Positions 18,567-32,964 of a stretch of 64,000 nucleotides of DNA are shown here, piece by piece. A program made the translations under genes and the position numbers. This stretch comes from a virus, in IMG/VR virus record IMGVR_UViG_3300007538_000020, positions 30,982 to 94,981 of that record; one strand, given 5' to 3'. Within the stretch, counting starts at the first letter, position 1. Each line of letters starts with the position of its first letter. The notes beneath the pieces are model-generated. The model was given only the letters and a program-made list of their open reading frames with translations, had not been told where the DNA came from and did not search any database.

Positions 18567-21500
18567 TTAAAAAGGAGGAGGACCACAATCGTCACCTTCT
18601 ACCATATCTTCATCAGTTATTTGATCTCTTAGATCGTCTATAGTTAATTGACTTGGGTCTAATAAAGATCCAAATGGAGAACTAGTAGGAAGTAAATCAG
18701 AATTTAAAGTAGGTGTTTCTTCTTTATTTATAGGAACTTCTACTGCTACTTCATTAACAGATTTAGTTAAAAAAGAGTTCATAGAATATTCATTATTTAA
18801 TTGATTTACTTTTTCAAATATTCTATGAGTATCTGTTTCATCATATATCATATATAATTCACTTCTTCTTTTTTCTTTATTATACAGTTTAACAAAATCT
18901 GTTACTAATAAAGTATCAGGAGTAGTATTTTTAGTTATATCTATAGATACAGTTCTCTTATCTTTTGAAAATCTACCATTAACTATTTCAGGAGCTTTAT
19001 TAGGATTGTTTCTAAAGAATTGTTGGACAAATAATTTAGACATCTTTATCTCATTAATAGGATTATTATTTAGTATAGAATAAAACTCTTTAGAATTATA
19101 AGCATCTCCAAATCCAATAGATACTAAATACTCTATAGGAATAATAGAACTCAATCCATTAGAACTTCTTAGACCACCTGTTGTTAAATAAGAATAAGCT
19201 ATTAAATCTTTAGCTAATAAAGCTTCTTCTGCATTATCAGAAGATAACATATCAGCTACAGTTTTCATACCATAAATTCTTTCAGTTGATTCTAATTGGT
19301 TTGTATTTAAAGTAATCTTATCTACAAATAATTCTTTATTATCAGCTAACTCAATATTCATTCTTTGCATTAACCAATTATCAGGATTATCTGTTTTATA
19401 TTTTAATAACCTGGCTCCTATTCCTTTAAGAATATTTTTTCTATATTCATCAAAAGTTACTTCTGTAGAATAAAGATTATTTTTCTTATAAGTCATTAAG
19501 AATTGAATTAATGCTTTTTTAACATCTCTACTTAGTTTTTGAGATAACTCATCACTACCTAAAGATTTTAAAATATCAGCATTAATATCATAAAACAACT
19601 TACTATTATATGGATATAAACTATTATTGTTATATAAACTTATAACAGGTCTATAAGCTTTATCCATTAACTCACCTGCAAATGTTTTAGTATAAAAATC
19701 ATCTACATTTCTAAATGGTAAAGCTTTAACAGCTTCTTCTGAAAGTTGAGTACTCTCTCTATATTTATCTGATAGATTTATGTTTTTAACTAAATCAGTA
19801 AAGTTTTTACCTACTGATTGAGTATCTATATTTAAACCATTTATAACTTCAGTTAATTTAGCAGCTGTATTACTATATTGCATATAAGTATGTAATATTT
19901 TTAATTGAGCTTCATAGAATAATATCTTTTGTTGATTATTTAAAGATTCTAAATTTTTATTAATTTTTAAATTATTCTCTAAACCTTTTTTAGAAAATAT
20001 ACCAATATCAGTAGCTGTAAATGGTTTACCTTTTAATTCTTTTATTTTATTATTAAAATAATTTATAGTTTGTATTTCAGCTTCTTCTTCATAAGTAGTC
20101 TTTACATACTTATTTAAACTTGATTTACTAGCTTTTAAAATTTCAATATATTTAACAATAGCAGGTTGTTTTAAAAAGCCTACAATCAAAGATAAATCAT
20201 CTATACCAGATATTGCTATATACATAGCTGTAGGTAATGTTTCTATATTTAAATTAGCTTTATTCAACTGTTGCTCTTTAGCGTTATCCACAGCAGCAGA
20301 TTGGAATATCTGTAGTATATCTGATATATAGGTATTGTTAACAACACCTCTTATTTTATTAAGTTTAAATAATCCAAATAATTCTTTATTATTATAAGAA
20401 CCTGCTTTGTCTAAATCAACATCAGTATATAATTCATCTGAATCATCTTTTTTAAATTTAACTCCTTTTATAACATCATTTGTTTTTAAAGCAAAATTAG
20501 TATACTGAGCTTGAGAAAAGAAAGTAGAAAATAAAGAAGTAATACCAACTGCTGTTTTACCTACTACGTTAGATTCGAAATAAGCATCTTGTGTTACTGA
20601 AGAAAAAGGACTTATTACTTCTGTTTGTTCATCATATTGACTATAGTGATCATTCACTTCTTTTAACACATCAATTTCGTTTGGCTTCAACATTCTTTCT
20701 AATAACTTAGGATTAGTAAGAACATCTAAGTACATATCTATTATCTTATTCTGTCTGGCTTTTAAAGTATTCTGAGCAGCAGGTGATTGTTCTTTAAAGG
20801 TTTCAAAGTCAGGAATATATTTTTTATTTATCAATTCATTTATTAAAGATTTTTTACTTGTTATATAATCCTCTTCTATTTCTTTAAATTCTTTATTTAA
20901 AAATAAAGTCTTAACATTTAATAACTCTATTTTTTCTCTTATTTCATCTTCTTCTTCTCTAGTTTTAGCTTCTTCTAATTGTTCAGCATAATCTTCTAAT
21001 AGACGTTGAGTATCTTTATTACTCTTTATTGCTTTCTCATACTCTTTCTTATAAAATGAGAATGTTTTGAGTTTTGATTTATTCTCTCTTAAATATAAAG
21101 CTAATAACTCTTCTACTTTTTCAACATACCTATTCTCTACATCTTTCTCATCTAAAGATTCACTATATTTAACTACTTGTTTAGTTATAGGATCTACGTT
21201 TTTAAAATAAATATATAATTTATCAACGTCAAAGTCAGATCCCATTCTCTTCAACATCTCAGGAGAAACTACAACTAAGTCTCCCATAGAAGGAGGTAAG
21301 AATCCTTGAATTTTTAATGGAACCATTAAGTTATGTCCTTGGTTAGGAATCCTAAAACCAACTACTCTTAATAATTCTTCAGGTATATTATTAATATCGC
21401 TAAAATAACTTTTAAAGATATTTGGTAAATATATTCCTTCAGGTAATGTTCTAGCTTCTTCATTAGATTTTTGATTAAACCTTTCATTTAAAATATCAGA

Positions 21501-24500
21501 TAAAGCTCTAGCTTGAGATATATCTGTAGTAGCAAATTGATCAGTTAATGTTTTACCTTTAGCTTTTTGATATAAATCTTTTTCTAAATCTGGATTTTCA
21601 TTTAAATATTGTTCCCATAAAGATTTATAAGCTTGGTAAGACTCTTCTTTAGTCATTTTATTTAAAGGTGCTTTACCTTTACCTAATTTCCAATCGTTAC
21701 CTTGAACTCTATATCCTTTAACATCTAATTGATATGCTTCCTCTATAGTTCTACCATCATTTAATTTAGCATATAAAGCACTAAATCTTTTATCTCCTTT
21801 AGAAGAAACTTCATAATTATTTTTATTTTCTTTTTTATATCTACTCCAATCTATTTTTGTTTCTGATTCAATAGATAAGGTATCTAATGAATTACTATTA
21901 TCTCTAATATACTGAATCTTATTTTTTGCATTTTTAAATAATTCTGATTCTGTATCTATTACTTTATTAAATGCAAAGTTAGAAGCTTGAACAAATGATT
22001 TACCACTCATCTTCTGTTTTACTAATTTATTAGTAAAAATAGATAATAAGAGTGATTCTATTTGTTCAGAGTAAGGTGTTAAGTATAAAGGAATTAAGAA
22101 TTTATTATCAAGTGTTTCTAAAGCTTGTAAAAAGTTTTCATCAAATCCTCTTGACTCAGCTTCTCTTAATATTACTTCTTTAAATTTATCTATATTATTT
22201 ATTTGATACCTTTTAGTTTCAGGATCATAATAAGACTCTAAAGTAGCTACTATTAAGTTTCTATAATTCTCTTGTACTGTATATAAGTGTAAGTCTTCGA
22301 ACAATGCTTTTTTCTCTTCTGCATTAGCATCAAATTCTTTTAAAGCTTCAAAGAGAAGTTTTCTAGCCTGAGAAACTAAGTTTACTTTATTTTTCTCTGC
22401 ATCGAAAGGAACTTCTTGCTGTAGTCTCATACCACTCCAAGGAAGAACATTTATGTTATCGGGATCTAAATCTAATAACTCATAGTTTTCATTTACAATT
22501 GGTTGTATACCTTGTGAACCTATCTTAGAAGCAGATTCAAAAAATAGTATATCTACAGGATTATCTTTATTTTCCATTTTATCCTTTAACTCTTTTAATT
22601 GAGTAAAGTTATTATTATTAACTAATTCGTTAATCAATGGAAATGCTGAGAACTTAATATATTTAGGTACATATACTTTTAAAGTATCATCCCATACATC
22701 CTCCACGTATACAGGTTTCAGAGGTCCTAATACTTTGTATAAATCTTTATTAGATAGTTTTTGATTATTTCTTATCTTATTAATAATTCTCTTATAATCT
22801 TTATCTAATCTACCTAAACCATCTAACATTTTTTCATAAGTATCTAAGGTTACTATTGCCTGAGCATCAGTACCATTCATATCTTTAGAATACTCTTCAA
22901 CTAATTTATCATAAGTTTTCTTATCTTTAACAATTGATTTTAAGTCTTCTAAAAATTTATCTTTATTTTTTAAAGGATAATAAATATCTTTAACGATAGC
23001 AGCTCTAAATGAACCTTCTAAAAAGAAGTCTAAACCAGGAGCTAAGTTTTTAGCAGCTCGTTTTGAAGCATCATCAAGGTTTTTAGTAAAAGCTAAATCG
23101 TTATCCATCAAACTAGAATATACAATTTGAGATAATAAACTATTATATATATAACTATCTAATAAGTCTATATCTTTATCTTTTTGTTTAGAATAATTTA
23201 CATCAATATATTTAGATAATATATTTCCTTTATTATTTACTAAATTAAGTTTTTGTAATTGTTTTATTTTTTCTTCTTTAAGCTTAATGAAAATATCATT
23301 TAAAGCATTTAATATTTGTTCCTTATGTACTTCTGGATTATATAAAGGATCAGTTAATAAGAAAGTAGAGTTCTCTGTAGATAAACTTGTTTTATTTAAA
23401 GTTGGAAATATTACAAATTTAAAAGCTTCCCCATCTTTACTTAATTTATCTTTTTTGTAATGATAGTTTAAAACTAACTTTGATTCTAATCTCTTTTTTA
23501 GAGCTGGGTCAGTTGTAGTTTTTATAGCATCTATTAATCTATGAGCTTCTCTTATTCTATTAAACTCTGATATATAAATACTATATAAGTTATTTAAAGA
23601 TTCAGAATCTAATCTATTATTAACAAAAGATACTCTAAACTTAGGCATTTTAATAAAAGGAATAGTAGGTTTATCTGACTGAGTAGGAGATATAAACCAA
23701 CCTGTACTATTACCTTCATTCATAAAACCAATCAATTTAGTTATCTCTCTTTCTTGAGGAGATAAGTTTTTAAATGGTTTACCATTACCATAATCTCCTA
23801 TTTTATTAAAGTTAGAGAATATAGCATATTCAAAATTAGTAGAATTCCACTCACCTGAATTTAATTTCTGTGTAATAAAACTATCTTTATGAAAAGGACT
23901 ATTATTTAAAGCTAATCTAAAAGTAGAATTAGCATTAAATAAATCTCTCATTTTTTTAGATAAAGCGTGATTAGCAAAAACAGAATAAATGTTTTTACCC
24001 TCTTCGTTTCTAAACATAGTTGAGTAAACGTTATTATTAGTTAATAATTCAGCTAATGATAACATTTTAATATTGTTACTTTCTTTAGAAAAAGGATTAT
24101 TATCTATCGCATTATCACCTTCTTTTATTGATTCTAATGATTCAAATATTCTATAAACAGAAGATAAGAATTTAGTAGCAGTGTATTTTCTATTAATTAA
24201 TTGAGGACTATTAACAATTATACTTATAGTTTCAGGACTAATATCTATACCTAAATCTTTTAATAATGGTCTTAAATAAGATAATTTAACTTCAATACTC
24301 TGCTGATTATCTTTTATAATTCTATAATTCTCTAATATTTTATTTATTCTTTTTAAATCATAAACTAATTGATTATTAGAATATTTTACATTCTTATTTA
24401 AATTTGTATTTTTAAAGTTTTCATACCAATTAGTTATTATTAATTCATTAGCTTCTCTTCTATTAGAATAAATAAATCTTAATGTATTATTATTGTCATT

Positions 24501-27500
24501 TTTAGTAAACTGAGCTGTAACAAATTTAGCATGTTGTTTACTAAAGTTAGACATGAATTCTTTATAAACAGCAACAGAGTCTTGATTTTTAGAATTCTTA
24601 AACTCATTTAATTTCTCAGCTATGTAATGATACATTGAATTATATCTACCTAATTCTTGTAACCTATCATATATTTCTTCTATAGGAACATTAGATAAGT
24701 TTAATACTAAGTTATTATATACTACATCATAAGGTAGATAAGATGTCATGTTGAAAATATTAACTTTATTCTCAAACGCACCTTTAGTATTCTTTATTCT
24801 TTCAGGAATAAAAGCTAAAAACTTTTTCATTCTGGCAGAAGCTGAATCTTTTGGATTAACCTGAAATGCTTCTCTACCATAAGATTCTGAACCAATAGAA
24901 TCTAACTCTAAATCTTCATCATACTCATCTTCTAATAATTCAGAGTATGTTATGATTTTATCAAGACTTTTTATATAAGCAATAGATTTTTCTACTATTT
25001 TTTTGAAAGTAGGATTATTAAAATCATTTGCTAGAATAGATTCATATCTTTCTAATATAGGATCTTCTGAATCTAGTAATTCTATTTCTTCTTTAGTTTC
25101 TAATAATATATTTTTTAATTTACTAACAGCTTCATCTATTTTTTTATCTGGATTACGTAGAATAAAATCCAATAATACTTTACTTGATGATTTTAATATT
25201 TCATCAGTTTCGAAAATAGATAATTCAGGAACTAAGAAGTTTTCATATAAATCATATGATTTTTCTTCAGAGTTTAATTTATTATTAGAATATTTGTTAT
25301 CATAGTTTAATATATCAGATACATGCTTATCTACTAATTCATAAATAGAATTATTTTTAGTTGATATACCAAATAAAGATTTAATAAAATCTATAAACTT
25401 ATCAAATACAGATTTATCTTTATCAGTATTTTTTAATCTTTCTTTAAACTCTTTATTAGAAAAAGCTTCTGATAAGAATTCATCTATTGATGATAAAGCA
25501 TAATTGAACTTATCATCTTTTATTTTCTCTTTAGCTTCTTTGTATAATTGTTGTAGATCTTTATTACCTGTGTGTTTATGTAAAGCAGCGTGTAATAATT
25601 CGTGTACTATTACATATTCTATATCTCTTGAAGACTTTTTAATAGCTTTAGTATTAATAAGAATTGTATTAGTATTAGCATTATATTTAGCTATCTTTTT
25701 ATCCTGAGCATAGTAATATTTAAAGGTAGGTAAATTACCTTTTAAGTTATTTAATATCTTATCATAAATAATACTTAATTCAGGATCTTTACTAATTAGT
25801 TCTGGTAATACATCATATTCATTACCTACTAATTTAGTTAATTGTCTTATGTTATGTATATTACCTAATTGTGAATTGAAAGTAACACTAGAATCTATAA
25901 AAAATAAGTCATTAGGATTTTCTACATCATCTAAATCGATTACTTTACCTAAAGGATTTGTTTTACCAGATGATTTACCTTTAGGAGGAGTTTTAGGTGG
26001 AGTTTTAGGCTTAGGCTTAGGCTTAGCTTTTGGCTTAGGTTTAGCTTTAGGTTTAACTGATTTAGTAGCAGGTTCGTTTTTGTTAGTTAAAGCTTTATTA
26101 ATATATGCTTCGGCAAACTCTCTTATATTTTTAAAACCTTGTTTATCTTTTTTATATTCAGCTAAAATGCTAGGATATTTCTTAGCAATATTTCCTACAG
26201 CTTTTTCAGTTTGTACATATTCTAAATCTTCATTTGTAAATTTAGTATTTTCTGTATCAGGTATTAGTACTTCTTTATTATTAGGTTTATAAGTAGATTC
26301 TTCTTTTTTAGAAGTTTCATCTATAACTTTAAATGATATTACTGGTTGTAAGTTATAATACTTTTTACCAGGATTACTTTCACTATAAGGTAAACCTTTA
26401 ACATTAGTTGTTAAGTTTCTACCAAGAAACTCTCTATTACTTATTTTACCTTTATAAACTAATTGGTTATTATCAAATTCCATATTGATATAATCACCTT
26501 TAAGTATATTATATCTAAGGTTAGATAATAATTCTCTTATTTTAGATTCATCTTTATTAGTAAAATATTCAGTAGTCCATCCTCCTTTAGAAGACTTAGT
26601 AGTGAATATTCTAATTTCTTTTGTTTTACTATCTCTAACTACTTTAAAGTTATTAGAGTTATTACCATTATAAACAATATAATTCAATAGTTTTGAAGCA
26701 GAATTAATTTCCGCAGGAAAACCTAATTTAGCTAATTCTGTTGGGTTATCATATCTATCCCAATTTTGTAATATATATAGAGCTTTTTCTATAGCATTTT
26801 GATCTAATTGTCTAGGAACAACAGCCCATGGCATTAATACTTTTTTATTAGGATTTTTAGAACCTCTTGCGAAAGTAGGTATTAATGCGAATACAGTACC
26901 TTTTTTAAATTTATTTACATTACTAACATCTATTTCACTATCAGATAAATCTGGGTTACCTATTATTTGTAAAGCATTAACATCATCTGCATAACCAAAT
27001 GCTATATCAGAATCTAATGTTTGACCATCTCCTAACTTTTCTACTAAACTACCATAGTTATCTGTTTTATTAAACACACCATTATTCTTATCAGTTATTT
27101 CTATAGTAACTGGATTATTATTAGTTACTAAACTATCAAATAATTTAGTTCTTAATTCTAATAATTGTTTCTGAGCTTCTTTAGTATTTTTTTCACTTAT
27201 TAATCTTGCTATGTTAGGATCTATTCTATCTAAACTAGTTACTTGATTTTGGAAAGCATGTACATAAGCTACTTTCTTATTATTAGAATCTACTATAACA
27301 TAAGGAATCTTATGTAAGTTTTTAGAGTTTATCTCTATATTATTCTCCTTAGCATATTCCTCATCTATAATAATTGAAAATCTCTCACCTGGTAATATCT
27401 TATCTCTATCTAATAAATCATTGTTTATTAAATTATTAATAACAAGATTACCATTTTCATCATAGACATCTTCTAAATCTTCATTTTTTTCTATATGAAG

Positions 27501-30038
27501 ATAAGCAAAGGTTATGATATTTCCTTTTTTATATTTTACATCTTCTTCTTCATATACACTTTCATTATCTTCTAAAACAGATTCTTCTGTTTGACCACTA
27601 GTATCTATTACATCTGGGTCTGTATTTAAAGTAGGTTTAGTTTTAGTTTTAGGTTTAGCTTTAGCTTTAGACTTAGGAGGAGTCTTTGGTTTTTTACTTA
27701 ACTCTTTTTCTAAATCTATTACGCCTTCAGAAATTAATGTAGCAGCTTCAGCGAATAAGTCCTCATACTTATTCATTAAATCAATTTCTTCTTGTGTTAA
27801 ATCTACACCTTTGAGTTGTTTGTCTATTATTTCTAATATTCTTCTTTGAGAAGGTTTTTCGTCAGTAGATGTTGTTGCATCTGATTCTTCTTCTGTATCT
27901 GTTTCTGATTCTTTTTGAGACTGTTTAAAGTTTTCATACTTTAAATCTATTTCCTTTTTCTTATCTTCTGAAAGATTAGGATACATTAGTTTTAACTCTT
28001 CAAATAATTTATCTACAGTATCAGCATCATTATTATTAATAGCTTCATCAAAAGAAATTTCTTTTTCTTTAATTACTTTATCAAAAGCATCTTTAACTTC
28101 TTTCTCTCTTTGGTCATTAATATCTTTTTCTCTTTTAGTGGCATACTCAGAATCTTTTAATTTTCTATAATTATCTGTGTTGTTAGTTACTTGTATTTCA
28201 GATGCTAATATATTAGCTACTTTTTTCTGTACATCTCCATCTATCTCATCTATTAAAAAATCAACTTCACCAAAAGGTTTATTAGTATCTTCTTTTATTT
28301 TTTCTTGTAAAGATTTTAATTCTCTAGAATTAGATTCTAATTTAGATTGTAAAAATTCTATATCTTTTTCTGATAAATTCTTTCTGGTATCTTCCTCAGA
28401 TAATACACCTTCAATTACTTTATTTTCGTTTAATAATTGATTACCTCTTATTACAGAATCTTTAATTAAATTATCTACATTAGATAAATTAGCTTTACTA
28501 TATATATCAAATAAAGATGCTTTAGCTTTAGTTATAGTTTCTTTGTTAAGAAGTATATTAGCTAAGTTATTAAAAGCTTCTAATCTAACATTAGTTAATG
28601 AACCATCAAATTCATTAGTTACTTTATTCCAAGTATTTTCTATAATGTCTACTGCTTTTAGATATTCTCCTTTTTTATTTTTAATAACATTAGGATCTAA
28701 TCCAGCTGCAACAGCTTCTTCCTCTGTCATATTGAACATCTCATCTAAAGTAGCTTTAAACTGTTCAATAGTTCCTTGTTCAGCATTATGAAATGCTAAG
28801 TTATATAACATTTTCTTTTGAAGTTGTTCATATTTAACTTCATCATTATTAGCTATAGCTTCTTGCATTTCAGCATAAAGTTTAGAATTTTTATTAAAAA
28901 TATCTTTAACTTTATCTTTATTTTTATTAGCAAATGCCATTGCTTTTTCTTCTTGCTGAGCATATGTAGGAGCACCTTTTATCTTTGATATAGCATCATT
29001 CAATTTTTGTCCTCCAGCCTCAAAAGCAACACCACCAACTGCACCTAATAGACCTGCTGTTAAACCTTCATCAGAAGTTAAATAATCCATAAACCTACTA
29101 GATATAGTAGTATCATCTTGAATATTTAAAGCATCTCTTTCATTATCTTTTGCTATAAAATCCATTAAAACCTCTTCACCATATTCACCAGCAGCGTTCA
29201 TAAAATATTCTTTTCCTCTCTTTTTAATCCAAGGAGAAGCAGCATCAGCAAATCTAGAAGCAGTTTTAATTCCTCTCATTAAAGTATAGTATTGAGGAAT
29301 TTCAAACATTAAATTTATTTTAGATTGGTATACTATATCCATAGCTTCATTTAAAGCTACTTCATTAGAAACACCTTGACTTAATAATGATTTATAAGTT
29401 TGAGAAGCATTTTGCATAGCTTCTACGTAATTCATTGAATAAGCACTAGTAAGAGCACTACCAAATTTAGTTGCGTTAGCTCCTAGTTTTAAAGCTTGTA
29501 ATCCTAAAGAAGTAGCTCTACCAATAGCCATACCAGGAACCATATAACCTAATGATTCTAATACAGTATCACCATTTCTCATCCACCATTCAAAAGATAA
29601 TGGGTCAAACTCTTCACTACCAGGAATAGATCTACTGAACTCTGGAAGTTCTTCATCTAATTTATCTTTTAATCCTCTTACTGATTCTGATACAGTGTTT
29701 GTAAAATCTCTTTCTAATCCTAATATTTCAGGAATATCTAATAGAAAACCTATTGATTCTGGTATAGTTAAAGCAGCCTTACCTATACCTCTTAAAGTCA
29801 TATTACCTAATTTAGTTAGTCTAGATTGCTTTTCATTCAAATCTTCCATTATAGTAGAAGATGTAACATTGTTATAGTTTACACCATATTTATCTGCATA
29901 CTTCTGTATTACAGGATCTAAAGTTACACTGTTAGGGTCTGGAAAATTAACCCTATCTATTTTAAATTGTTGTTTAGGATCTTGTAGAGGATCTAAACTG
30001 TTGTTAAAATTTATATCTTTAAATATACTGTTAGCCAT
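18567..30038 (-). CDS. Virion-packaged multidomain RNA polymerase (crAss-like, two-barrel) with zincin and NADAR-like domains
   Basis: 3823 aa; KR..K..APG, TDAQ, LKP, FRIPNQ, GSDFDVDK (DxDxD), QNKIID and AAVDNAKE motifs; HELLH zincin motif. Confidence 0.88.
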   Translation of the reverse strand: MANSIFKDINFNNSLDPLQDPKQQFKIDRVNFPDPNSVTLDPVIQKYADKYGVNYNNVTSSTIMEDLNEKQSRLTKLGNMTLRGIGKAALTIPESIGFLLDIPEILGLERDFTNTVSESVRGLKDKLDEELPEFSRSIPGSEEFDPLSFEWWMRNGDTVLESLGYMVPGMAIGRATSLGLQALKLGANATKFGSALTSAYSMNYVEAMQNASQTYKSLLSQGVSNEVALNEAMDIVYQSKINLMFEIPQYYTLMRGIKTASRFADAASPWIKKRGKEYFMNAAGEYGEEVLMDFIAKDNERDALNIQDDTTISSRFMDYLTSDEGLTAGLLGAVGGVAFEAGGQKLNDAISKIKGAPTYAQQEEKAMAFANKNKDKVKDIFNKNSKLYAEMQEAIANNDEVKYEQLQKKMLYNLAFHNAEQGTIEQFKATLDEMFNMTEEEAVAAGLDPNVIKNKKGEYLKAVDIIENTWNKVTNEFDGSLTNVRLEAFNNLANILLNKETITKAKASLFDIYSKANLSNVDNLIKDSVIRGNQLLNENKVIEGVLSEEDTRKNLSEKDIEFLQSKLESNSRELKSLQEKIKEDTNKPFGEVDFLIDEIDGDVQKKVANILASEIQVTNNTDNYRKLKDSEYATKREKDINDQREKEVKDAFDKVIKEKEISFDEAINNNDADTVDKLFEELKLMYPNLSEDKKKEIDLKYENFKQSQKESETDTEEESDATTSTDEKPSQRRILEIIDKQLKGVDLTQEEIDLMNKYEDLFAEAATLISEGVIDLEKELSKKPKTPPKSKAKAKPKTKTKPTLNTDPDVIDTSGQTEESVLEDNESVYEEEDVKYKKGNIITFAYLHIEKNEDLEDVYDENGNLVINNLINNDLLDRDKILPGERFSIIIDEEYAKENNIEINSKNLHKIPYVIVDSNNKKVAYVHAFQNQVTSLDRIDPNIARLISEKNTKEAQKQLLELRTKLFDSLVTNNNPVTIEITDKNNGVFNKTDNYGSLVEKLGDGQTLDSDIAFGYADDVNALQIIGNPDLSDSEIDVSNVNKFKKGTVFALIPTFARGSKNPNKKVLMPWAVVPRQLDQNAIEKALYILQNWDRYDNPTELAKLGFPAEINSASKLLNYIVYNGNNSNNFKVVRDSKTKEIRIFTTKSSKGGWTTEYFTNKDESKIRELLSNLRYNILKGDYINMEFDNNQLVYKGKISNREFLGRNLTTNVKGLPYSESNPGKKYYNLQPVISFKVIDETSKKEESTYKPNNKEVLIPDTENTKFTNEDLEYVQTEKAVGNIAKKYPSILAEYKKDKQGFKNIREFAEAYINKALTNKNEPATKSVKPKAKPKPKAKPKPKPKTPPKTPPKGKSSGKTNPLGKVIDLDDVENPNDLFFIDSSVTFNSQLGNIHNIRQLTKLVGNEYDVLPELISKDPELSIIYDKILNNLKGNLPTFKYYYAQDKKIAKYNANTNTILINTKAIKKSSRDIEYVIVHELLHAALHKHTGNKDLQQLYKEAKEKIKDDKFNYALSSIDEFLSEAFSNKEFKERLKNTDKDKSVFDKFIDFIKSLFGISTKNNSIYELVDKHVSDILNYDNKYSNNKLNSEEKSYDLYENFLVPELSIFETDEILKSSSKVLLDFILRNPDKKIDEAVSKLKNILLETKEEIELLDSEDPILERYESILANDFNNPTFKKIVEKSIAYIKSLDKIITYSELLEDEYDEDLELDSIGSESYGREAFQVNPKDSASARMKKFLAFIPERIKNTKGAFENKVNIFNMTSYLPYDVVYNNLVLNLSNVPIEEIYDRLQELGRYNSMYHYIAEKLNEFKNSKNQDSVAVYKEFMSNFSKQHAKFVTAQFTKNDNNNTLRFIYSNRREANELIITNWYENFKNTNLNKNVKYSNNQLVYDLKRINKILENYRIIKDNQQSIEVKLSYLRPLLKDLGIDISPETISIIVNSPQLINRKYTATKFLSSVYRIFESLESIKEGDNAIDNNPFSKESNNIKMLSLAELLTNNNVYSTMFRNEEGKNIYSVFANHALSKKMRDLFNANSTFRLALNNSPFHKDSFITQKLNSGEWNSTNFEYAIFSNFNKIGDYGNGKPFKNLSPQEREITKLIGFMNEGNSTGWFISPTQSDKPTIPFIKMPKFRVSFVNNRLDSESLNNLYSIYISEFNRIREAHRLIDAIKTTTDPALKKRLESKLVLNYHYKKDKLSKDGEAFKFVIFPTLNKTSLSTENSTFLLTDPLYNPEVHKEQILNALNDIFIKLKEEKIKQLQKLNLVNNKGNILSKYIDVNYSKQKDKDIDLLDSYIYNSLLSQIVYSSLMDNDLAFTKNLDDASKRAAKNLAPGLDFFLEGSFRAAIVKDIYYPLKNKDKFLEDLKSIVKDKKTYDKLVEEYSKDMNGTDAQAIVTLDTYEKMLDGLGRLDKDYKRIINKIRNNQKLSNKDLYKVLGPLKPVYVEDVWDDTLKVYVPKYIKFSAFPLINELVNNNNFTQLKELKDKMENKDNPVDILFFESASKIGSQGIQPIVNENYELLDLDPDNINVLPWSGMRLQQEVPFDAEKNKVNLVSQARKLLFEALKEFDANAEEKKALFEDLHLYTVQENYRNLIVATLESYYDPETKRYQINNIDKFKEVILREAESRGFDENFLQALETLDNKFLIPLYLTPYSEQIESLLLSIFTNKLVKQKMSGKSFVQASNFAFNKVIDTESELFKNAKNKIQYIRDNSNSLDTLSIESETKIDWSRYKKENKNNYEVSSKGDKRFSALYAKLNDGRTIEEAYQLDVKGYRVQGNDWKLGKGKAPLNKMTKEESYQAYKSLWEQYLNENPDLEKDLYQKAKGKTLTDQFATTDISQARALSDILNERFNQKSNEEARTLPEGIYLPNIFKSYFSDINNIPEELLRVVGFRIPNQGHNLMVPLKIQGFLPPSMGDLVVVSPEMLKRMGSDFDVDKLYIYFKNVDPITKQVVKYSESLDEKDVENRYVEKVEELLALYLRENKSKLKTFSFYKKEYEKAIKSNKDTQRLLEDYAEQLEEAKTREEEDEIREKIELLNVKTLFLNKEFKEIEEDYITSKKSLINELINKKYIPDFETFKEQSPAAQNTLKARQNKIIDMYLDVLTNPKLLERMLKPNEIDVLKEVNDHYSQYDEQTEVISPFSSVTQDAYFESNVVGKTAVGITSLFSTFFSQAQYTNFALKTNDVIKGVKFKKDDSDELYTDVDLDKAGSYNNKELFGLFKLNKIRGVVNNTYISDILQIFQSAAVDNAKEQQLNKANLNIETLPTAMYIAISGIDDLSLIVGFLKQPAIVKYIEILKASKSSLNKYVKTTYEEEAEIQTINYFNNKIKELKGKPFTATDIGIFSKKGLENNLKINKNLESLNNQQKILFYEAQLKILHTYMQYSNTAAKLTEVINGLNIDTQSVGKNFTDLVKNINLSDKYRESTQLSEEAVKALPFRNVDDFYTKTFAGELMDKAYRPVISLYNNNSLYPYNSKLFYDINADILKSLGSDELSQKLSRDVKKALIQFLMTYKKNNLYSTEVTFDEYRKNILKGIGARLLKYKTDNPDNWLMQRMNIELADNKELFVDKITLNTNQLESTERIYGMKTVADMLSSDNAEEALLAKDLIAYSYLTTGGLRSSNGLSSIIPIEYLVSIGFGDAYNSKEFYSILNNNPINEIKMSKLFVQQFFRNNPNKAPEIVNGRFSKDKRTVSIDITKNTTPDTLLVTDFVKLYNKEKRRSELYMIYDETDTHRIFEKVNQLNNEYSMNSFLTKSVNEVAVEVPINKEETPTLNSDLLPTSSPFGSLLDPSQLTIDDLRDQITDEDMVEGDDCGPPPF

Positions 30039-32964
30039 TTAAAATATTGTTTATGTATTTTTGTGTTTCAAGAGGTAAAGCTGTTATATCTTTTTTATCG
30101 TATTTAATCCATTTGTCCACATTACCTGTTCCCCAGTTATAAGCTGCTAAAGCTAAAACTTTGTCTCCTTTATATTTATCTAATAATGCTTCTAAATAAT
30201 CTCTTCCTAATCTATATTGATGTTTTATTTGTTCTTCAGCTGATAATTGTTCATAATTATCAGGAAGAGGTTTAATATTAAAACCAGGATTTTTACCTGT
30301 AGCTGACATTATTTGTGTTAGTCCAAATGCTCCTTTTTTAGAAACAGCAGATGGATCATAATTACTTTCTTGTTTCATCAAAGGTATCATTAATTCAGTA
30401 GCCATATTTTGATATATATTATCTTTATTATTAGTTATAATTCCTGTGCTATCTTCTGTATTATCTTCGTTATCAAATATAATAGCCATTATGTTTTCTT
30501 TAGTAGGAACTATATCAGCAAATTTATCTTCAGTAGTTTGATTATTTGTTTGATTATCAGTTACTTTTTTTTTTTCGTTTTCAGCTGCCTGATTAAAGTT
30601 TTCTAAAAAATACTGAATTTGATTAGGAGAAAAACCATGTTGTTGAAGACCTTGTATAAAATAAGCTCTTTTTTGTTCAGCATCTAAATAAGGATTAGGT
30701 AATATTTCTGTTTCTAATTTATTTAAATCATAGAACATATTTAAAGCATCTAAAGTAGTATTAGCTTTTACTGTTATACCTTTATAAGTAACATCTAATT
30801 TACCTCCACTATCTTGATTATTAAAAATATCTCTTGATAATTCTATTTTAGTATCTCCAACTTTAAATTCTGCGTATGTTCCTAAAGAATTTCTTAATTG
30901 ATTTTCCATACTTTGAATATATGAATAATCTAATTGACTTTGTAAACCTATTTCTTGTAACAATCCTACATCTTCAATAGGATATTCTATTTTAAGCTTA
31001 TCATTAATAGCTATATCAGCCATCCATTTATTATCACCAGGATCATAAGTAAGAGCAAAACTAGCATTATAAAAATTATCAACATTTAATTTATCATCAT
31101 CAACTTTATCTTTTTCACTTGCTTGTGAATTTTCATATAAAAATTTATTAACTAATTTTTTCTCATCTTCAGTTAAAGGTCTATTATCAGTAGTTCTAAT
31201 TTCGTTAGAAGGATTAAATGCTAAAGCAGTTTTAATTGTACTTATAACTCCTTCTCTTGCTCTTTTAGTATCTGGATTAAAGCCAGCAGGTATAACAAAA
31301 GATAAAGTAGAAAAAGAAGTAGCTTGTGTTAAATTATTTAATTTACCTACTATTTCTTTATACTGAGGAGAATAATTACTTAAATATTCATCTCTTTTTT
31401 TATTAGCGGCTTCTATTGTTTTATCACTTAGCTTTAAATCTTTTAAATCACTTCTTAATACAACATTAGTAGCTAATGGATAATAACCTGGTTTTATTTC
31501 TTCGAAACTGTCTACTACTTTTACAGGATGTGGCAGTAAAGGATTACCTGCATTACTTCTTTGTGCTCTATATAAAGTAATAGCTTCTTCTTCTAAAGCT
31601 TGTTCATAAACTTTATCAGCATTTTTTAATACTTCTGGATGTAAATCGCCATTTTTTAATTGTCTATTTAAATCTCCTAAAATTTGTTTTACTCCATTGT
31701 AAGTACTCCAATCTTTTTCTCTAATAGAATTTATAGGTAAAACAGAGTTAGCGTAAAAGTTATTATATGTTTGTTGTTGAGCTTGACTTAGATTATCATA
31801 ATCTAAACCAGATACAATTAAAGATGTAAATCCTTTTCCATTATCTACATATTCAAAATTAACGTTAGGTATTTCTAATCCTTTATCTTGAAAAGCAGTT
31901 GTATATTGTGTACTTATTTCACTTATATATTCTTTATCTCTTTGTTCATTTGTTTCTGATAAAGCTTCTAAGTGTTTAGTCATTCCTTGAAAAGTATTAG
32001 CTGAACTTGGTAATAAAGGTTGTTGAGTTCTACTAGTAGCTATAGATGTTAAACTAGCAAAAGTACTTTCACTTGCTTTTTTACTACCACTACCACTACC
32101 ATCTTTAGAAGGAGATACTTTTTTATTCATTTGTTCTGTTACAGAATGTTCATACATTCTTATTAAATTAACTCCTAAAACATCTTCTCTATATTTATTA
32201 ATATCATATTCTAATCCTAAATCTTTTTCATAAGAAGCTTTTCTAAAAGCAAGACCTTCACCTTGACCTTCAAATAATGTATTAGTATATTCTTTATTAT
32301 CACCTGTGATAAAATTAAGTAACATATCTTTATCTATGTATTCTTCTTGACCATATTCTCCTTCTTGATAATAATAAATTTCTCCATCTTCGGATTTACC
32401 TATTTTAAGGTCTGGAAAATATGTTTTAATTTTTTCTAAAGAAGGTTTTAATAAATTGAAATGCCCTTGATATTCTTTTATCCAATCAGTTTTAGGTGTA
32501 AATTCATACCAAGATGGATCAAAATCTTCACCTTTTTTTGTTTGTATATAATTTCCACTTTTATCTAAGTAATTAAATACAGCTCCTTTATTCTCTCTAT
32601 TTATTTTTTCAGCTTCAGATCTATATTTCTCATCATATAATATATTCTTATATTCAGGATTATTAGAAATCTCTCTGGCTAATGATTTTATGTTAGCCAT
32701 TGCTTTAGATGAATTACCAGTTTTTTGAAGCTCTGTTAATATAGATTCTATTTGAGGATTATATTTCTCTTTAAACATAGTAGCTCTTTCACTAGTTCTA
32801 TAACCTCCTTCAGGAAGTAGTTTAGCTAGTTCATCTGCAGTAGTATTAGCTTTATCAAAATCTGTTTGTTTTTGATTTAATGCTATAATAGCTTCTTTAA
32901 AAGGAAGCTCTGGTACTGGATTTGGTATGTTATCTATTGATGGTAATTTAAAAAATCTAGCCAT
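30031..32964 (-). CDS. Virion cargo protein with C-terminal lytic transglycosylase (SLT) domain
   Basis: QESNYDPSAVSKKGAFGLTQIM, ALAAYNWGTGNV and ETQKYI motifs. Confidence 0.85.
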   Translation of the reverse strand: MARFFKLPSIDNIPNPVPELPFKEAIIALNQKQTDFDKANTTADELAKLLPEGGYRTSERATMFKEKYNPQIESILTELQKTGNSSKAMANIKSLAREISNNPEYKNILYDEKYRSEAEKINRENKGAVFNYLDKSGNYIQTKKGEDFDPSWYEFTPKTDWIKEYQGHFNLLKPSLEKIKTYFPDLKIGKSEDGEIYYYQEGEYGQEEYIDKDMLLNFITGDNKEYTNTLFEGQGEGLAFRKASYEKDLGLEYDINKYREDVLGVNLIRMYEHSVTEQMNKKVSPSKDGSGSGSKKASESTFASLTSIATSRTQQPLLPSSANTFQGMTKHLEALSETNEQRDKEYISEISTQYTTAFQDKGLEIPNVNFEYVDNGKGFTSLIVSGLDYDNLSQAQQQTYNNFYANSVLPINSIREKDWSTYNGVKQILGDLNRQLKNGDLHPEVLKNADKVYEQALEEEAITLYRAQRSNAGNPLLPHPVKVVDSFEEIKPGYYPLATNVVLRSDLKDLKLSDKTIEAANKKRDEYLSNYSPQYKEIVGKLNNLTQATSFSTLSFVIPAGFNPDTKRAREGVISTIKTALAFNPSNEIRTTDNRPLTEDEKKLVNKFLYENSQASEKDKVDDDKLNVDNFYNASFALTYDPGDNKWMADIAINDKLKIEYPIEDVGLLQEIGLQSQLDYSYIQSMENQLRNSLGTYAEFKVGDTKIELSRDIFNNQDSGGKLDVTYKGITVKANTTLDALNMFYDLNKLETEILPNPYLDAEQKRAYFIQGLQQHGFSPNQIQYFLENFNQAAENEKKKVTDNQTNNQTTEDKFADIVPTKENIMAIIFDNEDNTEDSTGIITNNKDNIYQNMATELMIPLMKQESNYDPSAVSKKGAFGLTQIMSATGKNPGFNIKPLPDNYEQLSAEEQIKHQYRLGRDYLEALLDKYKGDKVLALAAYNWGTGNVDKWIKYDKKDITALPLETQKYINNILNG

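Follow-up and report, generated by a model that had tools for sequence, protein, structure and literature searches.

Why does a giant phage RNA polymerase carry, shortly before its catalytic motifs, a block of some 125 amino acids which most related polymerases lack? This question is raised by a window of 64,000 nucleotides, positions 30,982 to 94,981 of the IMG/VR virus record IMGVR_UViG_3300007538_000020. All coordinates given here are those of the window, and all features described are on its minus strand. The record has 94,981 bp and is about 92% complete; the GC content of the window is very low (26%). An intact open reading frame (ORF), 18567..30038, flanked by further very large ORFs in the same direction, codes for a protein of 3823 amino acids (aa), P0001, which we consider a giant virion RNA polymerase (vRNAP) or polyvalent protein. 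The block is a domain of the phrog_9995 family, found at 21450..21857 (aa 2728–2863). An earlier note, made from the sequence alone, had compared it with NADAR, enzymes which remove ADP-ribose (ADPr) from guanine, and had proposed that the polymerase carries it into the cell and clears the template. Our results indicate that it is a mobile domain with a predicted NADAR-like fold, captured repeatedly by polymerases of this type, and that it may be used by the phage in counter-defence.

A domain inserted in a virion RNA polymerase

On sequence grounds, P0001 is a two-barrel vRNAP of the crAss type, since its catalytic block matches those of Crassvirales and gp66. The 183 residues which follow the inserted block give tblastn matches in 134 Crassvirales records, including the "putative RNA polymerase" of crAss001 and gp66 of the Cellulophaga phage phi14:2 (E 2e-12, 47.6% identity over 63 aa of the catalytic block). 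P0001 and gp66, a protein of 2180 aa, have in common the barrel which contains RIPNQ and DFDxD. RIPNQ, with which the catalytic double-psi beta-barrel begins, is found at 21339..21353 (aa 2896; 1322 in gp66), and the catalytic metal-binding motif DFDVD at 21222..21236 (aa 2935), which corresponds to DFDID at 1361–1365 of gp66. Among 61 giant homologues retrieved by means of the catalytic region, RIP[NT][QE] is present in 56 and the exact RIPNQ in 41. A phmmer search of the C-terminal 1310 aa of the polymerase against PDB sequences gave no match, gp66 included. According to the description of gp66, this protein is packaged in the virion, is translocated together with the DNA into the host cell and there transcribes the early genes; its templates in vitro are single-stranded or denatured, every Asp in DFDID is essential for RNA synthesis, and residues 1095–1238 form a Connector domain (preprint 10.1101/2020.03.07.982082). 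Both gp66 and its neighbours have been confirmed as structural proteins by mass spectrometry.

The inserted block corresponds to a full-length domain. A slice of 150 aa compared with PHROG matches phrog_9995, to which no function is assigned, over positions 2–123 of 124 (E 4.5e-49), and the limits given above are those of the hidden Markov model (HMM) envelope. They agree with the discrete block of about 125 aa which the earlier note had placed at 21478–21857. The peptide is in frame with the ORF: YEVSSKGD starts at aa 2742 and SDILNERF at aa 2847. The end of the domain is about 35 aa from RIPNQ and about 70 aa from DFDVD; a spacing of about 40 aa ahead of RIPNQ, as indicated previously, was correct.

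The family is large. A collection of 5.8 billion proteins contains 264 homologues of 82–263 aa; the 120 of them which were listed have 50–67% identity to the window copy, and all of these lack a functional name. When 1.84 billion proteins were searched with a profile, the result was 906 cluster representatives at E<=1e-3, comprising standalone proteins, mid-size fusions and many giants. We consider both the phrog_9995 match and these numbers of homologues to be far beyond chance. Scans of the segment with Pfam and NCBIfam gave nothing above threshold; the matches to uL18, ApoA-II, YidC and Peptidase_MA_2 obtained in Pfam, NCBIfam and PDB sequence searches were rejected as noise.

The insertion site was defined by aligning 550 aa around RIPNQ from the window protein and from the nine homologues which match it best. 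Both flanks are conserved, with ...GKSFVQ.S.F.F...I.WIR.N.NSLD ahead of the site and PEG..LPNI...RIPNQ after it. The upstream block, GKSFVQASNFAFNK at 21963..22004, corresponds to GGSFIQLSNFG of gp66 (approximately 1235–1245), at the end of the Connector. The block directly downstream, PEGIYLPNIF at 21414..21443, has an aligned counterpart in seven homologues out of nine; P0132 and P0133, which are the most distant, have a gap. The site holds about 140 residues in the window protein, as compared with about seven (VKDNKLE and similar) in the seven closest homologues. In gp66, which lacks the domain, the equivalent is a 20-residue loop (approximately 1262–1281), just past the Connector and about 40 aa ahead of RIPNQ. 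The insertion is clean and appears to lie in a variable surface loop of the vRNAP: The earlier note had anticipated a variable insertion, not a segment aligned with the RNAP core, and this is what the homologues indicate.

Few of the polymerases have the domain. Besides P0122, only three of the 61 giant homologues contain it, each at another position. P0122 is a 2201 aa public record of the same protein in a 45,951-bp contig, 100% identical over the queried region; it is shorter than the 3823 aa ORF, probably because the contig is truncated or the start was called further downstream. When all the proteins gathered are considered, the module is present in at least 28 giants in which a crAss RNAP core can be recognised, at five or more positions other than that of the window protein. 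Its location with respect to the core is quite variable: just upstream in the window protein, P0192 and P0211; about 220 aa, 355–580 aa or 800–1500 aa downstream in other proteins; and, in a single case, about 1300 aa upstream. In P0192 and P0211 the module occupies the same region as in the window protein, with different junctions. The modules of P0192, P0211, P0124, P0175 and P0179 are 67–73% identical to that of the window, as compared with 26–41% for the vRNAP bodies, and in four of these five comparisons the module is more conserved than the 68 aa catalytic block. The GC content of the domain (25.7%) coincides with that of the ORF (25.6%), and so does GC at third codon positions; the acquisition is therefore not recent, the module being fully ameliorated. 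On account of these values and of the in-frame domain, we reject an intein or a recently transferred cassette. It is practically certain that the block is a mobile inserted domain, and the comparison of sequences indicates that crAss-type vRNAPs have captured it repeatedly.

Predicted fold and relationship with NADAR

An AlphaFold2 model of the domain, obtained from a 43-sequence alignment, has a predicted local distance difference test (pLDDT) of 93.3 and a predicted template modelling score (pTM) of 0.86. We compared it with 48,161 PDB representatives by a method independent of Foldseek, and the first three matches are NADAR structures: the DarT1-linked NADAR of G. lovleyi (8bat; Z 8.9, r.m.s.d. 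3.8, 129 residues aligned with 19% identity), E. coli YbiA, an N-glycosidase of riboflavin intermediates (2b3w; 8.8, 3.7 and 123), and P. nicotianae NADAR with ADP-ribose (8bau; 7.8, 3.5 and 121). The C-terminal domain of RapZ is found in fourth place (5o5q; 4.5, 3.9 and 93). The only credible match given by Foldseek against PDB is 8bat (E 0.05, probability 0.93). The elements follow the same order as in YbiA: strand, small hairpin, helix with the Glu, short helices, long helix, helix, last strand and terminal helix. The N-terminal motifs are also parallel: YEVSS..RFSAL..DGR..TIEEAYQ in the domain, FYS..FSNF..DGK..TSEHYFQA in NADAR. On the basis of this model, a NADAR-like fold is very likely.

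The resemblance to NADAR noticed previously is thus upheld by the predicted fold. Sequence methods, on the other hand, do not confirm homology, and a number of results weigh against it. The Pfam models for NADAR (PF08719) and NADAR-DarT1 (PF22397) do not match the window copy at E<=1. No significant match to the DarG1/NADAR-DarT1 model is found in the family: A single member out of 43 reaches PF22397, with E 0.056, below the curated cut-off. PF08719 finds no match in the whole phage genome. A comparison by hhalign of the 252-sequence family profile with a 34-sequence profile of YbiA and phage NADARs gave E 0.15 and a probability below 1%; it aligned just a local motif of 29 columns and is a weak test, as both profiles have low diversity. 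The family profile A1 gave nothing against the single YbiA sequence, and its comparisons with the 34-sequence NADAR profile (local, global and greedy) were not significant. The domain is also shorter than known NADARs, about 125 residues as compared with 219 in the DarT1-associated antitoxin DarG1 (8BAT, BC4488 family). The D130/W133 loop, which contacts the ADPr pyrophosphate in 8BAU, has no counterpart: Instead of the segment of YbiA which contains E125, D130 and W133, we find a shorter TD.FA....SQA. Taking all this into account, we lean towards considering the domain a true homologue of NADAR.

A close comparison is provided by AdfN, the gp30.3 protein of T4. It is also a small phage-encoded domain for which an early counter-defence role is plausible, and the PDB entries which led to its recognition as NADAR are the three named above (8bat, 8bau and 2b3w). 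Like other standalone phage NADARs, it is a DNA ADP-ribosylglycohydrolase directed against DarTG1. AdfN, however, is a NADAR by sequence, has a His at the last strand and is expressed after infection, whereas the phrog_9995 domain is missed by the Pfam NADAR models, has an Asp at the last strand, lacks the D.YWG loop and is, in the present case, built into an injected polymerase.

The domain might belong instead with the clade formed by RapZ-C, DUF488 and DUF4326 (rhodanese-phosphatase superfamily), which is its commonest fusion partner and has a weak similarity to its C-terminal half. It would then handle phosphate or ribose-phosphate, such as that of ADPr-1''-phosphate or at the end of a nucleic acid, with no N-glycosidic cleavage. 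Several weak matches point in this direction: DUF488-N3i in Pfam (E 0.019, 15.9 bits), DUF4326 (0.81) and DUF488 (0.75) as neighbours of the domain in the ESM Atlas, DUF4326 proteins in BFVD, and DUF4326 when the C-terminal half is compared by hhalign (E 0.0066). However, none of these scores reaches significance or the curated cut-off (15.9 bits as compared with 27; below 0.9 in the Atlas), and a Pfam scan of the domain itself gives no DUF4326 match. NADAR is ahead of RapZ-C by 4 Z units in the structure scan, and a control model of a genuine DUF4326 gave the opposite ranking of folds, which makes a rhodanese-phosphatase (DUF4326-like) fold less likely. DUF4326 has nearly invariant C95, C97, C102, H103 and G104 (C.C....CHG), while the family has TD.FA....SQA, with no Cys. 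In addition, phrog_9995 and DUF4326 co-occur as separate units of one protein. Since the C.C....CHG motif is missing, and both domains are found side by side in 16 proteins, we consider the fold to be NADAR-like, not DUF4326-like, and membership of the RapZ-C/DUF488/DUF4326 clade unlikely. A deep relationship between both families may exist, as there are reciprocal weak cross-hits. The presence of a NADAR-like N-terminal motif and fold alongside a DUF4326-like C-terminal profile suggests that phrog_9995 could be an evolutionary bridge from the NADAR fold to this phosphatase-like clade.

Candidate active site

Residue conservation was counted over 252 family members, both standalone and embedded. 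In the catalytic scheme of NADAR, the first helix bears a Glu and a Lys, and the last strand is associated with E, D or H (PMC11543638, PMC11125620). The residues on the first helix are E43 and K50 in P. nicotianae NADAR, E48 and K55 in YbiA; at the last strand, the DarT1-linked BC4488 family typically has Asp. Three residues of the domain are candidates for these positions. E2766 (E53 in the model; 21741..21743), the first E of TIEEAYQ, is present in all 252 members and might be the catalytic Glu of helix 1; it is aligned to E48 of YbiA by a local hhalign match which is not significant. K2774 (K61 in the model; 21717..21719), in DVKG, is present in 251 of 252 and its position suggests the phosphate-binding Lys, at a distance of eight residues from the Glu, as compared with seven in YbiA and NADAR. 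D2833 (D120 in the model; 21540..21542), in TLTD, is again found in 252 of 252: It is an acidic residue right after the last beta-strand, formed by model residues 117–119. Judging from the order of secondary-structure elements in the model, it would be the E/D/H position which distinguishes NADAR subfamilies. Other residues are also invariant or nearly so: Q57, S40, Q129, E30, D36, K74, Y91 and W95 (model numbering). Conservation of this kind across 252 members would be the signature of an active site, and the positions of the invariant residues, as inferred from the model, would fit the NADAR scheme.

These residues also bear on whether the insertion is an enzyme at all. A binding, packaging, ejection or regulatory module on a NADAR-like scaffold would agree with its placement in a surface loop of a protein which is to be packaged and threaded through the tail; furthermore, some subclades of the neighbouring DUF488-N3 family are classed as "inactive" in Pfam. 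However, the invariant polar residues in the 252 copies (E30, D36, S40, E53, Q57, K61, K74, D120 and Q129) fit an active site and not a scaffold, and the same module is found both as a free protein of 120 aa and embedded at many positions. A non-catalytic role is thus very improbable.

Standalone copies and fusion partners

The standalone phage form of the module, with 120–145 aa, is commoner than the embedded form: In 80 IMG/VR loci, 51 copies are found in ORFs of up to 200 aa and 29 within larger ORFs. In cultured phages it appears as a small "hypothetical protein". Examples are PHIKZ082.1 of phiKZ, gp084 of PhiPA3, a protein of 201phi2-1, gp29 of Sphingomonas phage PAU and proteins of N4-like Achromobacter and Delftia phages. 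Phages of other types also have copies, such as those of Rhizobium, Erythrobacter, Bacillus and Vibrio. In phiAxp-3, counting from the left terminal repeat, the third gene codes for the module, and the gene annotated as RNA polymerase lies downstream of it; from what is known of N4, we take the module gene to lie in the early region, which the injected vRNAP transcribes. Most cultured-phage matches belong to lineages which inject an RNAP: phiKZ-like jumbo phages (69 Pseudomonas records), N4-like and crAss-like phages. This bias might be a coincidence, or reflect a link to early transcription independent of the host RNAP.

The module could also be a NADAR-fold enzyme intrinsic to the early transcription of vRNAPs, acting on NAD/ADPr-type 5' caps, initiating nucleotides or nucleotide salvage. 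The concentration of cultured-phage matches in virion-RNAP lineages (phiKZ-like, N4-like, crAss-like) would agree with such a role, as would the fusions of the module to guanylate kinase and SF1 helicase, and the action of YbiA on N-glycosides other than ADPr (PMC9503650). However, the module is absent from 57 of the 61 vRNAP homologues, so the polymerase can function without it. It is also found in the phages of other types mentioned above, and accessory counter-defence genes typically have a patchy and mobile distribution like that of the module. We consider an intrinsic role quite unlikely.

The fusion partners of the module are DUF4326 (frequent), DUF488-N3a (P0184), DUF7831, SF1 helicase and guanylate kinase (P0222). 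DUF4326 and phrog_9995 are found side by side, in both orders, in the 16 proteins mentioned above (P0005, P0007, P0010, P0019, P0244, P0248, P0273, P0290, P0293, P0296, P0301, P0307, P0315, P0318, P0320 and others). DUF4326 is described as a typical fusion partner of Macro, NADAR and SLOG domains; its predicted role is the processing of ribose-linked phosphates in ADPr derivatives (PMC9503650). By analogy with such fusions, the module would fill the "NADAR/Macro slot" next to DUF4326. In the 80 IMG/VR loci, most of which are syntenic jumbo phages, no canonical NADAR is adjacent to the module, and DUF4326 is near it in only two: one fused, the other in a neighbouring ORF. No linked toxin was found, although the bacterial and prophage contexts of the standalone homologues were not covered.

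Proposed function

We propose that the vRNAP, with the module tethered in a loop, would be packaged and then ejected into the host cell. Packaging and delivery in this particular phage would take place by analogy with related systems, and the module would reach the cytoplasm ahead of phage gene expression, as it is part of the packaged and translocated polypeptide. Once there, it would most likely act as a glycohydrolase on an ADP-ribose-type ribosyl adduct, or a derivative, by means of E2766, K2774 and D2833. The adduct would come from NAD+-dependent host immunity, and the module would be a pre-made counter-defence. We assign a probability of about 0.5 to a hydrolase related to ADPr and with a role in counter-defence.

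The most concrete candidate for such an adduct is DNA ADP-ribosylation by DarT-like toxins, since phage NADARs counter DarTG1, and also since DarT acts on single-stranded DNA and gp66 transcribes single-stranded or denatured templates. Specific action on guanine-ADPr DNA and DarT1, as the earlier note had suggested, seems rather unlikely. Even less probable is a self-repairing polymerase, in which the module would remove ADP-ribose or a bulky ribosyl adduct in cis from the single-stranded template or the nascent RNA while the injected enzyme is transcribing: The highly variable position of the module in vRNAPs, and the fact that it is usually a free protein, speak against a strict cleaning of the template at the active site. 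If this were true, a nucleic-acid de-ADP-ribosylase would for the first time be part of an RNA polymerase itself.

Phage NADAR counter-defence, virion-packaged ADPr enzymes and polyvalent proteins are already known. What is new is a large cryptic family with a predicted NADAR fold, and its apparent repeated capture by injected crAss-type polymerases. Literature searches found no NADAR-like module in crAss-type vRNAPs; Burroughs & Aravind 2023, where the DUF488/DUF4326 clade is defined, may list the family as a NADAR or DUF488-like clade. Phage NADARs acting against DarTG1 are so far known solely as ordinary early genes. If active, the module would be a pre-loaded enzymatic counter-defence which precedes all phage gene expression; it would provide a function for a widespread "hypothetical" gene of phiKZ, PhiPA3, 201phi2-1 and N4-like phages, and crAss-type vRNAPs would be delivery vehicles for swappable anti-defence enzymes.

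Other modules in the polymerases

Two vRNAP homologues contain a canonical Pfam NADAR, PF08719: P0151 (aa 2558–2676) and P0162 (aa 1969–2106). As different homologues bear NADAR, AlkB-type, helicase, amidase and DUF7831 modules, crAss-type vRNAPs look, as far as their sequences go, like a delivery chassis for exchangeable enzymes.

Pfam matches in the homologues P0126–P0182 include SF1 helicase in many cases and an AlkB-type 2OG-Fe(II) oxygenase, PF13532 (P0128). Other cargo consists of PF12694 (P0141, P0179), amidase_2, PF01510 (P0177), and DUF7831 (P0158, P0166, P0182).

P0001 itself has an intact HELLH motif of zincin metallopeptidases at 25590..25604 (aa 1479–1483), in a region with weak YgjP-like, SprT-like and MPTase-PolyVal Pfam matches. 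It resembles the phage polyvalent proteins in this zincin motif, its giant size and its multi-domain character. The zincin could process the giant protein; a free release of the inserted domain is unlikely, since it lies inside the RNAP core.

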